Part shown: piece after piece, positions 6,806 to 15,317 of the stretch | How positions within the stretch are numbered: the stretch's first letter is position 1 | How the letters are laid out: the number at the start of each line of letters is the position of its first letter | DNA from: Methanothermococcus okinawensis | Lineage (GTDB): Archaea; AGJL01; Methanococci; Methanococcales; Methanococcaceae | NCBI GenBank assembly: GCA_015661585.1 | Contig: DQVU01000044.1 | Coordinates: 1-18,563 of the forward strand | Direction: 5' to 3' | DNA: 18,563 bases | Made by a program: the position numbers and the translations under genes | Notes under the pieces: model-generated | Database searches by the model: none | Told to the model about the DNA's origin: nothing | What the model saw: only the letters and a program-made list of their open reading frames with translations

Positions 6806-6837
6806 TATTAACTTTTCTGTTATTTCTTATATTTTAT

Positions 6838-7030
6838 TAGGGGAAAATGATTCCTGAATATTTTTTATACAACTGTTGATATTACAATAGATTCCTAATC
6901 TTTATCTCGGTGTTCAGAAAATATTTTGAGGTATTTAATGATTTTATTCATTTTTTATAGATTTTTATTGTTGTTTTATTATTATAACAATTATTATTTT
7001 ATCTTTTAATCACTACTTTTAATGGGAACT
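6838..7030 (+). repeat. foldback repeat, copy C (5'-truncated)
   Basis: ATCTTTATCTCGGTGTTCAGAAA (6898-6920) matches B1 5396-5418 with one mismatch. CTTTTAATCACTACTTT (7003-7019) is identical to 13498-13514. The right terminus is CTTTTAATGGGAACT (7016-7030). Confidence 0.7.
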
Positions 7031-7134
7031 AAGTTTTTTAATTATTTTTGTTATAGTTTAAAATGTTATCTCCATGACCTATGAGTAAATTTCAATTGTG
7101 GCAGAATTCTATCCACAAAATTATAGTGGGGTTA

Positions 7135-8250
7135 TTAGTTTTGTCCAAAGTTATCTAAGAGATTACATAACCTTTCAAAATCCTCCTCCCTATGTTTCAC
7201 ATTTATACTTACTCTTATCCTCTCAAGCCCTTTAGGTACAGAGGGGTATCTGATTCCTGGGGCAAATATTCCATTTTTAATTAGATACTCTGAAATTTCC
7301 ATAGTCCTCTCCCCCAGTATTATGGGATATATAGGCGTTAAATTATCCTCCCCAATAAGGTTGTACCTCTTAAATATCCTATTTGCACTCCTTATGTTCT
7401 CCTGTAACTTCTTAGTTAAATATCCTTCCTCTATCAACTCTAAACTCCTAAGGACTCCAGAGACTACTGGGGGAGGCAATGCAGTTGAGTAGATGAAACT
7501 CCTAGAGGTGTTTATTAGATACTCCACCACCTCCTCTATTCCACATACAAAGCCCCCCAACCCTCCAAAGGCCTTGGAGAGAGTACCTATCTGGATGATG
7601 TTATCTGAGGGTTTTATGTTGAAGTGTTTCAAGGTGCCTTTACCTTCACCTAATACCCCCGTACCATGGGCGTCATCTACTATCACTACACCGTTGTACT
7701 CATCTGCAACCTTCTTTATATCCTTCAGTGGTGCAATATCTCCATCCATGGAGAACACTCCATCAGTAACAATAAATATATTGTTGTATCTTCTCCCCTT
7801 ATTCTCCAATATATTTACTAAACTCTCTATATTACAGTGTTCGTATATCTCCACATCTGCCCTACTTAACCTACATCCATCTATTATAGAGGCATGGTTT
7901 AACCTATCACTTAGAATCAGATCTCCCTTTTTACAGAGGGAACTTATAACTCCAACGTTTGTAGAGTATCCAGTAGGATATACTAAGGCTCTTTCTGTCT
8001 CCTTGAATTCTGCCAACCTCTCCTCTAAGATCTCGTGGTTTATATTTCCAGAGGTTAATCTGGATCCTGTGGAACCTAAACCGTATTTTAATCCCTCCTT
8101 TACGGCCTCTATTACCTCAGGATGTTTTGAGAGACAGAGGTAGTCATTTGAGGAGAAGTCTAAGACATCTCCACCTTTTTTTCTTAGAAATCTGTATAAG
8201 TTGTTTCTCTTAATAATCTCCAATTCTTTCCTTAGTTTTAATCTAAACAT
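7135..8250 (-). CDS. bioF: 8-amino-7-oxononanoate synthase (class II aminotransferase)
   Basis: The 371-aa protein has the PLP-lysine context GTLSKAFGGLGG and the DDAHG motif. Overall it resembles the BioF/Kbl family. No other bio genes are in the window. Confidence 0.8.
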   Translation of the reverse strand: MFRLKLRKELEIIKRNNLYRFLRKKGGDVLDFSSNDYLCLSKHPEVIEAVKEGLKYGLGSTGSRLTSGNINHEILEERLAEFKETERALVYPTGYSTNVGVISSLCKKGDLILSDRLNHASIIDGCRLSRADVEIYEHCNIESLVNILENKGRRYNNIFIVTDGVFSMDGDIAPLKDIKKVADEYNGVVIVDDAHGTGVLGEGKGTLKHFNIKPSDNIIQIGTLSKAFGGLGGFVCGIEEVVEYLINTSRSFIYSTALPPPVVSGVLRSLELIEEGYLTKKLQENIRSANRIFKRYNLIGEDNLTPIYPIILGERTMEISEYLIKNGIFAPGIRYPSVPKGLERIRVSINVKHREEDFERLCNLLDNFGQN

Positions 8251-8260
8251 ACTTTCACAC

Positions 8261-8558
8261 GTTAAAATTAAAGGATATTATTAGTCGATAAAAAATAAAA
8301 AGATAATAAAAAAACCCTGTATTACCTTTCTCCGGAGTGTCTTTGAGATCTACTGTTTAAATCCACCTCACCACCCATATATGGTAGTAGAACCAACACA
8401 CTTTTAAAAAGAAGAGGTGGCAGGAATTCTACCTTCTTTCCCAATTCTCAGAAGTGTCCGAGAAGAATAATGTTTTTTATGTGTTAATATCTTTAAGTGT
8501 TTAACAATTTTAGAGTTTATACCATATTTTTTATTATATTCTTTTAAATTCTTTAAAT
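8261..8558 (-). repeat. foldback repeat, copy D (core inverted relative to B1/E)
   Basis: The half-core lies on the minus strand (GAATTCTACCTTCTTTCCCAATTCTCAGAAGTG, 8424-8456). TCTCCGGAGTGTCTTTGAGATCTACTG (8334-8355 region) is homologous to the reverse complement of E 13403-13432. AT-rich arms lie at 8261-8325 and 8527-8558. The termini are weak. Confidence 0.55.
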
Positions 8559-12037: not shown

Positions 12038-12203
12038 ATAACGAGACTGTGAGATGGCAACAATAAAGCAAGAACCCTAAAATAAATTTAATAAAAATAA
12101 TATAAAAGAGTAATTTAAATTGAGATTGTCAAACATCTAAAAAGATAGAGTTATAAAAAAGTGAAATTCGTATTTTAATATTTTATTATAAATAATAAAA
12201 ATA

Positions 12204-12221
12204 AGATCCCATTAATCAAAA
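12204..12221 (+). repeat. solo terminus-like motif of the foldback family
   Basis: AGATCCCATTAATCAAAA resembles the left terminus AGTTYCCATYAAAG. It is short and AT-rich, so support is weak. Confidence 0.3.
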
Positions 12222-12296
12222 CTATGGAAGACCTATTTTAATTTATATTATAATAATTTACATTTTATATTAAAAGTAGGGATAGAAGGGGTGACG

Positions 12297-13187
12297 ATGA
12301 ATATATTTCTCTTTGAATACGCCGTAGGGAGTAACGAAGATGTGGATCCCCATATACTACAAGAGGGTAAGTTGATGTTCGACAGATTGTTAGAGGATTT
12401 TCTAAATAACAACTTCACTGTTATCACTGTTGTAGGTGAGAGGTGTATACAATACTACAGGGGTAGAGATAACCTGAAAGTGTATATCCAGAGAGATTCC
12501 AACGTAATGGAAACCGTGGAGGAGGTGTTAAATAGGGAGAAAATAGATGGTGCCCTTGTAATTGCACCTGAGTGTGATGGATCGCTTTACAGACTGACTA
12601 AGTTGATCGAAGAAGAAGGCATCTTAAACTTAGGTTCCCACAGTGAAGGTGTGAGAATTGGGGGAAATAAATATCTAACCTACGAGAAGATAAAAGATGT
12701 TGTTAAAACTCCTAAAACTTTACCTCCAAAGAGATACATATTAAAGGAAATAGACGGTTGTGGTGGTTCCAATCAATTGGTAGTCCCTGAGAATTACATA
12801 ATTCAGGAATATATAGAGGGAGAACCTTATTCCACAAGTTTCATAGTAGGGGGTAAATTCTATCCTCTATCCCTCAATAAACAGTATTACAGGAATGGGA
12901 AATACATAGGGGGAGAGATCAACATAAATCACCCCCTCAAAGATAGGATAATAGAGGAGTCGATGAAGGCACTGAGGGAGATAGAAGGTTTAAATGGGTA
13001 TGTAGGTGTGGATATCTTATTGGATGGAGATACTATATATATTCTCGAGATAAACCCCAGAATAACCACATCTATAGTAGGTATATACACCACCCCTACC
13101 ATCTCACAACTATTAGTAGATAACGCCAAGGGGAAGGATCTTAGATATAGTGTAGTGGGAAGTAGGAAGATTACTATAGATTTATAG
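12297..13187 (+). CDS. ATP-grasp (ATP-grasp_3-like) ligase, possibly tyramine--L-glutamate ligase of methanofuran synthesis
   Basis: The C-terminal half looks like an ATP-grasp fold (EYIEGEPYS..., GYVGVDILLDGDTIYILEINPRITTS). I prefer the ATG at 12297 over the track's GTG at 12291 (GGGGTGA directly upstream). The MfnD assignment is by resemblance from memory only. Confidence 0.6.
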   Translation: MNIFLFEYAVGSNEDVDPHILQEGKLMFDRLLEDFLNNNFTVITVVGERCIQYYRGRDNLKVYIQRDSNVMETVEEVLNREKIDGALVIAPECDGSLYRLTKLIEEEGILNLGSHSEGVRIGGNKYLTYEKIKDVVKTPKTLPPKRYILKEIDGCGGSNQLVVPENYIIQEYIEGEPYSTSFIVGGKFYPLSLNKQYYRNGKYIGGEININHPLKDRIIEESMKALREIEGLNGYVGVDILLDGDTIYILEINPRITTSIVGIYTTPTISQLLVDNAKGKDLRYSVVGSRKITIDL

Positions 13188-13524
13188 AGTTTCCATTAAA
13201 AGAATAATAAAAAATAATAAAAATAATAATAAGAATAAAAAAATAACAAAAAAGGTTTTAAAAATAAAAACCTCTATCCACTCTGAATACAAATATATCC
13301 CCTCTACTCCTGAAGATTGGAGGAGGGAATGATTCTCTGAATATCTTCTAACTACAACTATGGGATGGTCCTTATACCATGGTAGAATTTCCTTATCCTA
13401 TACCAGTATTCAGAAAACATCCGGAGACATGGATATAGTTATTTATTAGGATTTTTACTTTTTTATTTTTATCATTATTTTATTATTTTTTATTATTCTT
13501 TTAATCACTACTTTGATAGAAACT
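13188..13524 (+). repeat. foldback repeat, copy E (most complete, 337 bp)
   Basis: The termini are AGTTTCCATTAAAAG (13188-13202) and CTTTGATAGAAACT (13511-13524). There is an exact 27-nt inverted repeat, 13196-13222 versus 13478-13504. The forward half-core is at 13305-13337 and the reverse half-core at 13381-13416. The element starts 1 nt after the upstream stop codon. Confidence 0.8.
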
Positions 13525-13587
13525 AAGGTACAATTTGTACTTTATCAGGATTTTTGATGAGACGTAAGGCGTTAAATTTGTGATAAT

Positions 13588-14466
13588 ATGAAGTTTCTAA
13601 TACTGAAGATAACTAACAACTGTAACTTAAGGTGTATCTACTGCTATAGGGAAGATAACACAGGTAAAAAAGAGATGAGATTCAAAACTGCTAAAAATGC
13701 CATAGACTATATCCTAAAGAAAGATGATAAATTAAAGATCCAATTTACTGGGGGGGAGCCTCTATTAAATTTCAAATTAATTGAGAGAATTGTAGATTAC
13801 TGCAAGGATCAATATCCGGATAAAAATATAACCTACGCTGTTCAAACCAACGGAACTTTACTGGAGAAAGGGATTATAGAGAAGATTAAAGAGTTGAATA
13901 TAAAAGTGGGAGTAAGTTTGGATACCATAGATCCCACGGATACTATCTTAAGACCCTACAGGGATGGGAGACCTTCTACCTTGGATACCTTAAGAGGTAT
14001 GTACCTCCTGAAGGAGGACAAGGTACCCTTTGGAGTTACAACTGTGGTAACTAATAAAAACCTCCCACATCTTCAGGATCTCGTGTATTACCTTGTCTCA
14101 ATGGGTGTAAAGAGTATAAGTTTTGATCTGTTGAAGCCTAAGAAGAGAGAACATCTCTCACTGATGCCAGAGGAGGAAGAATTTAGAAAAGTTCTGGAGA
14201 AGATGAAGGATCTTCCCATCTATATAAAGAATTTAAGAAAGAGATCTAAGGATAAATACTGCTATCTAAACAGTGGGGACCTTCTCTTCGTCAATGAAAT
14301 TGGAGATATTTATCCCTGTCCCACCTTAGAAGGTCACTTCTACGGGGGAAACATTAACAGTGGAAAAGATATTAAAGTATTTAAAGTTAAATGTAACTAC
14401 TGTTTTGCCAGAGGTTATCTAATTGGAAGATTGCTAACTACCCTTCCCAACACTGAGATACTCTGA
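13588..14466 (+). CDS. radical SAM enzyme with a truncated SPASM/twitch-like C-terminal Cys domain
   Basis: The CNLRCIYC motif (Cx3Cx2C) lies at residues 12-19. The C-terminus has C-x13-G-x4-C followed by CNYC, enough Cys for one auxiliary cluster. The substrate is unknown. Confidence 0.8.
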   Translation: MKFLILKITNNCNLRCIYCYREDNTGKKEMRFKTAKNAIDYILKKDDKLKIQFTGGEPLLNFKLIERIVDYCKDQYPDKNITYAVQTNGTLLEKGIIEKIKELNIKVGVSLDTIDPTDTILRPYRDGRPSTLDTLRGMYLLKEDKVPFGVTTVVTNKNLPHLQDLVYYLVSMGVKSISFDLLKPKKREHLSLMPEEEEFRKVLEKMKDLPIYIKNLRKRSKDKYCYLNSGDLLFVNEIGDIYPCPTLEGHFYGGNINSGKDIKVFKVKCNYCFARGYLIGRLLTTLPNTEIL

Positions 14467-15102
14467 TAGGAACCTTCCAAATTCTACGATATTCCTACTT
14501 TGGATGAATATCTTACCTGTCCCTCTGAATTCATATACTCTGCCCTCTCCACTGAAGATCGTAGTTTTTAAACCCCCTATTCTTTTTAGGGAATATTCAA
14601 GGCCCTCAGTGAATCCTACGAGGTTTCCGTTATCTACTATAATCTTGTCGTCCTCTAACTCGATAGTTTCAAGAACCCCAAAGGAGGATAGGAACACATC
14701 CCCCTCTCCCTTAAGTTTCATCAAAAAAAGCCCCATTCCACCAAATATCATCTTCAAGTCACTAAGCTTAGTATCTATCTCTATATCTGGTGAGGACGCT
14801 AAGTAGGCGCCACTTTGGACGTAGAGAGTTCCATCTAATCTGTAGTGAGTAATATCCCCTACGTATTTTGGAGCTAAGGCCAAGGTACCAGTCCCATAGA
14901 ATTTATTTAAAAAGAGATTCTCCCCTACTACCATCCTCTTTAACGCCCCCATCAAACCTCCCCTTATATCTGTATCCACCTGGATACCCTTGGACATATA
15001 GACCATGGCGCCGGTTTCTGCTATTATACTCTGATCTCTAAGGTTTATTTTTAGTAGAGAGTAAGCTGGGCCATACTCTATTTTAAAATCGTACTCTGTC
15101 AT
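14434..15102 (-). CDS. AIM24/DUF124 (TIGR00266-like) family protein
   Basis: The 222-aa protein begins ...YSLLKINL...GAMVYM, and its repeated beta-rich pattern is typical of DUF124. A GAGGAGAT ribosome-binding site lies upstream. Confidence 0.7.
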   Translation of the reverse strand: MTEYDFKIEYGPAYSLLKINLRDQSIIAETGAMVYMSKGIQVDTDIRGGLMGALKRMVVGENLFLNKFYGTGTLALAPKYVGDITHYRLDGTLYVQSGAYLASSPDIEIDTKLSDLKMIFGGMGLFLMKLKGEGDVFLSSFGVLETIELEDDKIIVDNGNLVGFTEGLEYSLKRIGGLKTTIFSGEGRVYEFRGTGKIFIQSRNIVEFGRFLSEYLSVGKGS

Positions 15103-15181
15103 AGTATCTCCTCAGTAACTTTTAATGTGTTTTATAAAAGTTGGATATATTTATTGTTTTTTATTTTGCTCCTCATAACCG

Positions 15182-15240: not shown

Positions 15241-15317
15241 GCCAGGGTAGTCTAGTCTGGCAAGGCGGCGGACTGCAGATCCGCTTTAGGAGGGTTCAAA
15301 TCCCTCCCCTGGCTCCA
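15241..15317 (+). tRNA. tRNA-Cys (anticodon GCA), CCA encoded
   Basis: I folded it by hand. The acceptor stem is GCCAGGG/CCCTGGC, the D stem GTCT/AGGC, the anticodon stem GCGGA/TCCGC with loop CTGCAGA, and the T arm GAGGG-TTCAAAT-CCCTC. The discriminator is U73 and position 37 is G. Confidence 0.92.

Follow-up and report, generated by a model that had tools for sequence, protein, structure and literature searches.

Miniature inverted-repeat transposable elements (MITEs) derived from insertion sequences (IS) of the IS982 family have already been documented in bacteria, for example MITECca01 of Cardinium (PMC9769881), and IS982 is among the rarest IS families in archaea (PMC13343696). We analyzed a near-palindromic region at positions 13188-13524 of contig DQVU01000044.1 from Methanothermococcus okinawensis, an 18,563-nt stretch referred to below as the window. 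The region lies between a gene encoding an ATP-grasp protein and a gene encoding a radical SAM protein. With a probability that we put at about 0.88, it is a fossil copy of a non-autonomous, foldback-type MITE with IS982-type ends. This kind of element is known and no new mechanism is involved; the family itself is previously undescribed, and a literature search found no paper describing it in Methanothermococcus.

Like the MITECca01-type elements, the members of the present family are short, non-coding and present in high copy number, and their terminal inverted repeats (TIRs) match those of an IS982-type IS. The MITECca01-type elements are mobilised in trans, and, judging from its ends, the same may apply to the present family. 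The differences are that the present host is an archaeal methanogen, that only the first 17-19 nt are common with the IS while the interior is unrelated, and that the elements are almost wholly palindromic. In addition, the parental IS is absent here, whereas Cardinium keeps an intact ISCca4.

Among archaea, palindromic repeats named MJRE1-3 are known from Methanocaldococcus jannaschii (Suyama, Lathe and Bork, 2005, FEBS Lett 579:5281, as cited in PMC2229807 and PMC2996958). Their host belongs to the same order as the present one, and their fusion to coding sequence can be likened to the end of the ATP-grasp gene described below. The MJRE repeats are reportedly mostly intergenic, number over 100 copies of low mutual identity, and are hence old, and they are only occasionally fused to coding sequence. 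A 16-mer from the terminus of the present family was at background (0-4 matches) in all 17 genomes of the sister family (genus g5, presumed Methanocaldococcus), and only the AT-rich arm of the element matched genus g5 genomes. Since the terminus was at background in these 17 genomes, the present family is probably not the same sequence family as MJRE. We know of no transposase partner or target duplication reported for MJRE.

The Sulfolobus MITEs SM1-SM4 (Redder, She and Garrett, 2001, as cited in PMC2229807) resemble the family in being non-autonomous, in being flanked by target site duplications (TSDs) and in having terminal repeats that match IS families, which in their case are resident. 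They differ in the IS families and hosts concerned. The SM elements are also said to coexist with their IS and not to form long foldback palindromes. Bacterial repetitive extragenic palindromic sequences (REPs), with the bacterial interspersed mosaic elements (BIME) and the enterobacterial repetitive intergenic consensus (ERIC), are likewise palindromic repeats, abundant in intergenic DNA and able to influence where transcripts end. Unlike the present elements, REPs are only 20-40 nt long, have neither TIRs nor target duplications and depend for their movement on RAYT tyrosine transposases.

Copies, termini and mobility of the family

The assembly that contains the window (G000, hereafter the window genome) is Methanothermococcus-like, comprises 1.10 Mb in 244 contigs with 35.7% G+C and is 65% complete. 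It was compared with its closest relative (G003), a complete 1.5-Mb genome of the same genus (G004), two further genomes of that genus (G005 and G007), two of a sister genus (G015 and G017) and one of the other family of the order (G022). A BLAST search of the element against its own genome returned dozens of copies with 70-80% identity. Three rounds of nhmmer on the window genome, counting non-overlapping loci, delimited 169 distinct loci that amount to 34,491 bp or 3.1% of the assembly. Full-length copies were found at 22 of the 169 loci; copy lengths ranged from 210 to 410 bp, and the truncations fell at random places. Only 1.1% of the family sequence overlapped open reading frames (ORFs) of at least 100 aa, while this crude measure counts 76% of the genome as coding, so the family accounts for about 13% of the non-coding DNA. 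Fragmentation of the assembly can be attributed to these repeats, because 55 of the 169 loci sit at contig edges. The orientation relative to flanking tandem genes was random (18 vs 16).

Full-length copies and about 240 termini above chance were aligned. The family begins and ends as 5'-ACCYTAGTTCCCATCAAAG...CTTTGATGGGAACTARGGT-3', with TIRs of 17-19 nt and a conserved terminus AACCY-TAGTTCCCATCAAAG-TAGTGATTAAAAGAATAAT..., and the conservation reaches as far as ACC and GGT. With up to two mismatches allowed, the terminus 16-mer matched 108 times in the window genome, 163 times in G004, 18 times in G003, 32 times in G015 and 7 times in G017. The other 35 Methanococcales genomes gave 0-4 matches, the same as a reversed-pattern control, and a second terminus pattern gave 314 matches in G004 against 0 control matches. 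Copy numbers were patchy and lineage-specific, and in the clade of the window genome, G003 and G004 the family has amplified to one copy per 7-10 kb.

Among 40 G004 copies fetched with their flanks, about 20 showed perfect TSDs of 8-10 bp directly abutting 5'-ACC...GGT-3' (for example AAATAATA, CAATATCT, TTTAATTA, AAAAAGAAT, ATAAAAGA and AATTTTCTAG, with about 15 more). These TSDs were judged by visual inspection, as a rigid 8-bp scoring under-counts duplications of 9-10 bp. TSDs were also seen around a few copies of the window genome. An empty site was identified for one G004 copy (L071), whose flanks meet in window-genome contig C176 with a 7-nt overlap, ATATAAA, and a single copy of the target. 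G004 L061 compared with C160 is probably a second empty site, and for four further G004 insertions the automated calls were ambiguous, with flanks of low complexity. Four G004 copies at different loci (L078, L091, L092 and L093) form a young cluster with 93-96% identity and perfect TSDs and appear to derive from the ortholog of the window-genome copy in contig C87. In the window spacers and in contig C51, no recent insertions were found relative to G003, and all differences were due to deletion or erosion of shared copies. The family is thus truly transposable and was mobile when these species had already separated, and it kept moving in G004 after the split from the window-genome species.

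A search with Pfam DDE_Tnp_1 gave no match in the window genome, G003 or G004 and many matches in the sister genus. The copies in G015 are about 1.04 kb long, contain a 240-aa ORF and are bounded by ACCGTAGTTCCCATCAAAAC... and ...GTGATGGGAATTAGGGT. IS elements of 942-1042 bp with ACC-N-TAGTTCCCATCA at both ends were present in G015, G005, G007 and G022, and at an IS locus of G026 only one such end was found. TSDs of 7-8 bp flanked three copies (TATTATA in G005, TAATTATC in G022 and TTAAATT in G007). The 240-aa product matched the NCBIfam IS982 profile NF033520 over positions 21-242 of 243 (E = 3.7e-37), and the next best NCBIfam families reached at most 29 bits; its score against Pfam DDE_Tnp_1 was 40.7 bits (cut-off 23). 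Members of the IS982 family as defined in ISfinder are about 1 kb long, with one ORF, inverted repeats starting with AC and short direct repeats. The partner IS fits this layout in its length, its single ORF of 240-241 aa, its ACC ends and its duplications of 7-8 bp.

The ends of the IS982-type IS and of the MITE match at 17 of 19 positions without gaps, and the cut positions are identical. The two have in common the terminal 17-19 nt, the exact positions of the cuts and the duplication length, and their interiors share nothing. Two other, abundant DDE_Tnp_1 elements of the sister genus (317 aa and 339 aa, from G017 and G015, L097-L101) were rejected as partners, as no family-like termini bracket them. 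We suggest that an IS982-type DDE transposase would bind both MITE ends in trans, cut exactly outside ACC...GGT and insert the element into AT-rich intergenic DNA with duplication of about 8 bp of target; each step is proposed from the shared ends, the cut positions and the duplication length.

Protein and profile searches did not find an intact transposase in the window genome, G003 or G004. At about 218009-218363 (L122 1209-1563), G004 retains a decayed fragment from the C-terminal part of an IS982-type transposase (tblastn E = 8e-9). It finishes in the right terminus GAGAACTAGGGT and is the only trace of the parental IS in the MITE-rich clade, which indicates a former presence of the parent and its later loss. 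In the window genome, G003 and G004 the family is now an orphan MITE family.

Taken at the level of the family, the mobile-element reading offered by the first-pass annotation was borne out. The family is short and non-coding and has TIRs, TSDs, many dispersed copies in patchy numbers, an empty site, presence or absence at orthologous sites and ends in common with an autonomous, cognate IS982-type IS.

A second dispersed repeat of about 170-200 bp, with 77-90% identity between copies, lies directly beside many of the G004 MITE copies. It occurs at least twice in the window genome (G000), at C206 5609-5790 and C89 4950-5155, and its G004 loci are L061, L064, L069, L072, L079, L082 and L089.

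The window copy and its neighborhood

The sequence of 13188-13524 agreed with its earlier description, including an exact 27-nt inverted repeat (13196-13222 and 13478-13504), the local hairpin listed in Table 1 and the TAG stop codon at 13185-13187; the ATG of the radical SAM gene is at 13588. A repeat search extended the inverted repeat to 47 nt with 81% complementarity (13195-13241 and 13459-13505). Folding of 13188-13524 was far better than that of dinucleotide shuffles on both RNA strands and also as DNA. The values were -83.8 kcal/mol against -53.1 +/- 4.7 for the shuffles on the + strand (z -6.6), -101.6 kcal/mol on the - strand (z -7.9) and -48.5 kcal/mol as DNA (z -5.2). The palindrome is therefore real and beyond chance.

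Comparison with the other copies changed several details of the first-pass annotation. The family consensus and the TSD positions in other copies place the element at about 13183-13529 (347 bp, with internal ORFs of only 29 and 36 aa), so that the earlier boundaries were about 5 nt short on each side. The element had been said to start 1 nt past the stop codon of the ATP-grasp gene; it overlaps the last sense codon and the stop, and the gap to the radical SAM ATG is 58 nt and not 63 nt. The supposed 12-nt duplication of the right arm turned out to be a loss of 12 nt (CAAAGTAGTGAT) from the left one, as the right arm fits the family consensus ...CCCATCAAAGTAGTGATTAAAAGAATAAT. The outermost five bases of the left repeat read TATAG against the consensus ACCYT, the 12 consensus bases next to them are those deleted, and the G003 ortholog retains TCCAGAGTTCCCAT. 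With this damaged left terminus the copy is no archetype. Its placement right behind a stop codon is also a peculiarity of this copy and not a rule of the family, the complete ends of family copies in the window genome lying 0 to 654 nt (median 115) from gene 3' ends. The core of the element alone gave about 90 matches in the window genome.

Table 1. Positions of the element, its parts and adjoining features in the window
Feature	Position	Strand	Basis or remark
ATP-grasp gene (PF02655)	12291..13187	+	Pfam scan; last codon and stop inside the element's left terminus
Left TIR, damaged	13183..13196		TATAGAGTTTCCAT in place of consensus ACCYTAGTTCCCAT; alignment of full-length copies and about 240 termini
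A-rich left arm (other strand T-rich), complementary to right arm	13197..13253		Inverted repeat; family profile positions about 20-65
Local hairpin GGTTTT-AAAAATA-AAAACC	13254..13272		Part of family consensus AAGGTTTTAAAAATAAAAAC
GC-richer core, imperfect palindrome (CTGAAGATTGG ... CCAGTATTCAG), without coding capacity	13273..13450		Folds
Non-palindromic centre	~13338-13380		Inside core
T-rich right arm, runs of 5-6 T on + strand	13451..13510		Sequence and inverted repeat
Right TIR, intact, CTTTGATAGAAACTAAGGT (consensus CTTTGATGGGAACTARGGT)	13511..13529		True end 13529; termini alignment; TSDs abut ...GGT in G004
Stretch of 58 nt outside the element, before radical SAM start codon	13530..13587	+	Alignment; strongly conserved with G003
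Spacers with synteny breakpoints, window vs G004	1878-2596, 6807-7163, 8255-8553, 12042-12296, 13178-13578

The genes around the element, according to a Pfam scan, encode F420-reducing hydrogenase subunits, Hmd, an ATP-grasp_3 protein and a radical SAM protein, and the host is a methanogen of the hydrogenotrophic type. For the ATP-grasp protein, the named relatives come from Methanothermococcus single-cell genomes, and the order-level genome set used for comparison accordingly stands for Methanococcales. In G003 the ATP-grasp protein is 91% identical, the gene order is the same and the element occupies the same site; the ends of the two copies are conserved, while the interior shows many substitutions and indels. 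The 58 nt preceding the radical SAM ATG are nearly unchanged in G003 and probably carry the promoter and ribosome-binding region of that gene. In G004 there is no element behind the ATP-grasp gene, which is followed by a convergent gene 10 nt on, and the ATP-grasp and radical SAM genes are about 1 Mb apart.

The first five nucleotides of the element are now mutated and contribute to the Leu298 codon and to the TAG at which the ATP-grasp gene stops. The protein ends in ...ITIL in G004, ...ITIDL in the window genome and ...ITIDLQSSH in G003. The stop codon in use today falls among the element's mutated terminal bases in the window genome and inside the element in G003, suggesting that the native stop was replaced by the insertion, owing to which the codon that ends the gene differs among the three sister species. 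By the same comparison, the window copy would have been inserted at the extreme 3' end of the ATP-grasp gene before the window genome and G003 split. The possibility raised earlier that the whole spacer is conserved and ancestral thus held in one respect, as the copy is ancestral to the window genome and G003, and failed in another, as it is absent from G004.

The window copy is an ancient, immobile fossil MITE. It would no longer be mobilisable, because 12 nt have been lost, the outermost five are mutated and the TSD is unrecognisable. Its present influence is a passive one, in that the ATP-grasp gene ends on a stop codon provided by the element and the spacer as far as the radical SAM gene is taken up by it. 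Archaeal RNA polymerase terminates at oligo-T, and the T-rich distal arm probably ends the ATP-grasp transcript.

Directly past the right end of the MITE, within the conserved stretch that precedes the radical SAM gene, there is a perfect 6-1-6 palindrome, GTACAA-T-TTGTAC, at 13528-13540. It is kept only partly in G003 (GTATAATTATGTAA) and may be a regulator binding site. On the other side of the radical SAM gene, an AIM24-family gene (PF01987; 14434-15102, - strand) is convergent on it with a 33-bp overlap. This gene is absent from the otherwise collinear G003 locus, where window positions 14451-15141 are represented by only about 6 bp (L032, ~13014-13020), and it constitutes a clean single-gene presence/absence difference between the two genomes.

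Compared with G004, the gene blocks of the window are scattered, and family sequence is present in the spacers at four of the five breaks, the studied spacer among them (Table 1). Relative to G003, the only breakpoint is at the first of these spacers. Both spacers that are unbroken relative to G004 also hold family sequence; for this reason the coincidence does not mark the elements as a cause of rearrangement. In contigs C85 and C51 the picture was the same.

Alternative explanations

Some observations weigh against an IS982-type MITE. The window copy itself has no TSD (left CTATAGATT vs right ACAATTTGT), and no duplications were visible around four IS copies in G015. The NF033520 score of the 240-aa product, 128.2 bits, is 2 bits under the curated cut-off of 130. 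No transposase that could mobilise the family is present in the three carrier genomes, although some of the copies in G004 have a recent appearance. Finally, the copy at C69 2397-2697 (L119) is 92% identical, gaps counted, to G004 1313239-1313549 (L034 6753-7040), or about 96% without gaps. Because this copy is more conserved than its flanking genes (86-88%), it argues against pure neutral decay.

The missing TSD fits the age of the window copy, which may account for it, as may a constraint from the coding sequence on the left or a rearrangement of the element's end. A search for the lost TSD partner elsewhere in the genome returned only non-specific AT-rich matches. Since no TSD is recognisable, we infer the insertion of this particular copy from its membership of the family. 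The C69 copy may have been taken over as a promoter or regulatory element, or it may reflect a local exchange between lineages; its G003 ortholog is truncated and 74% identical.

The elements might also be, or have become, host modules such as bidirectional terminators, insulators or promoter-bearing cassettes, with some copies kept by selection. We consider this unlikely, and it would be an addition to a MITE origin, not an alternative to it. A transcript of either strand would meet the A-rich arm and then the T-rich arm, at which the polymerase stops, and the arms do carry T5-T6 runs. Convergent spacers were enriched among the typed element loci (32/114, 28%, vs 125/777 spacers overall, 16%), and the conservation of the C69 copy together with its spacer points in the same direction. 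However, the C87 copy is only 71% identical to G004 L093 with flanks at 91-94%, a divergence that looks like neutral decay, and the window copy is rich in indels when compared with its G003 ortholog. G003 has moreover lost most of its copies to erosion or deletion with no evident damage (18 termini vs 108), its orthologous spacers containing mostly truncated remnants of copies that are fuller in the window genome, which fits the low terminus count. A scan for terminators of the bacterial type, with a model that does not cover archaea, found nothing, and the bacterial promoter scan is likewise of no informative value for an archaeal genome.

Beside the C87 MITE, an AT-rich intergenic stretch of about 90 nt is 100% identical between C87 1-140 and G004 L093 930-1053. 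This stretch is probably a conserved promoter or regulatory region.

It is also conceivable, though in our view rather improbable, that the family was recently active in G004 without a transposase of its own, through an unrecognised or plasmid- or virus-borne enzyme, and that the host took over some of the copies, of which the conserved C69 copy could be one, as regulatory or terminator modules. If this were true, the window copy would be a functional 3'-end or insulator cassette between the ATP-grasp and radical SAM genes.

Mobilisation of the family by a transposase of another type, either that of the G004 IS6-family element or a plasmid- or virus-borne enzyme, is very doubtful. IS6 elements also make 8-bp duplications, G004 contains 11 IS6 copies (98-100% identical in the three compared), and the IS6 end GGACCTGTCCAC is loosely similar to the MITE end ACCTTAGTTCCCATC. 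Such a source would also account for G004 copies that look recent while the IS982 transposase is absent. Against this, the IS6 ends need three gaps to align and carry a terminal GG that is absent from the MITE, whereas the ungapped match and the common cut positions of the IS982-type ends, and the decayed fragment in G004, point to an IS982-type parent that was once there. The IS6 element was rejected as the MITE partner, as its ends do not match.

The IS6-family element of G004 is about 710-740 bp long with a 215-aa open frame. Its copies lie at 97510-97809, 102039-102338 and 388227-388526 (L102, L105 and L107) and at eight more sites, and it is apparently active, judging from these near-identical copies. 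In the window genome IS6 occurs only as a weak fragment (C76 937-1089).

As to RNA function, 103 copies from the window genome and G004 were aligned to the family profile. Watson-Crick pairs occupied 58.7% of the palindromic cells, against 58.9% after column permutation and 36-41% in slid registers. As observed and permuted pairing are equal, the symmetry is a property of the consensus and is not upheld in each copy individually. Relative to the permutation, z-scores of the pairing were -0.1 for the terminal repeat, -3.7 for the arms and +1.2 for the core, and RNAalifold returned no consensus structure. A slight excess of G:T over A:C was seen at palindromic positions (796 vs 694), and the - strand folded better in 44 of 70 copies (26 the other way; Wilcoxon p 0.024), but the mean difference between strands was only 1.8 of about 50 kcal/mol. 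The window copy is the best-preserved palindrome, with about -82 and -100 kcal/mol on the two strands against a family mean of about -49. In Rfam, only a tRNA-Cys at 15241-15314 matched in the window, and the best scores of the element were 21.9 bits (gathering score 45) and 20.8 bits (gathering score 40).

The functional-RNA reading of the first-pass annotation therefore survives the energy comparison and finds no further support in covariation, orientation bias, strand asymmetry, which is weak, or Rfam. That the family codes for a small RNA from one strand, structured as a long hairpin whose palindrome is kept for an antisense, regulatory or processing-substrate role, is most improbable, because the two strands fold nearly equally, covariation and a consensus structure are lacking and the copies are randomly oriented relative to genes as well as randomly truncated. 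The palindrome of the MITE goes back to a founder that was itself palindromic, and selection does not maintain it; the MITE is selfish DNA of an ordinary kind and no special RNA or regulatory device.

Significance for the genome and the family

The family explains the unusually long spacers of a compact methanogen genome. The MITE load is very uneven among close relatives, with 108 termini in the window genome, 18 in G003 and 163 in G004, and G003, the most streamlined of them, erodes its copies by deletion. Together, a Methanococcales-wide IS982 clade and a large orphan MITE family provide a useful case for the study of transposon dynamics in hyperthermophile genomes.

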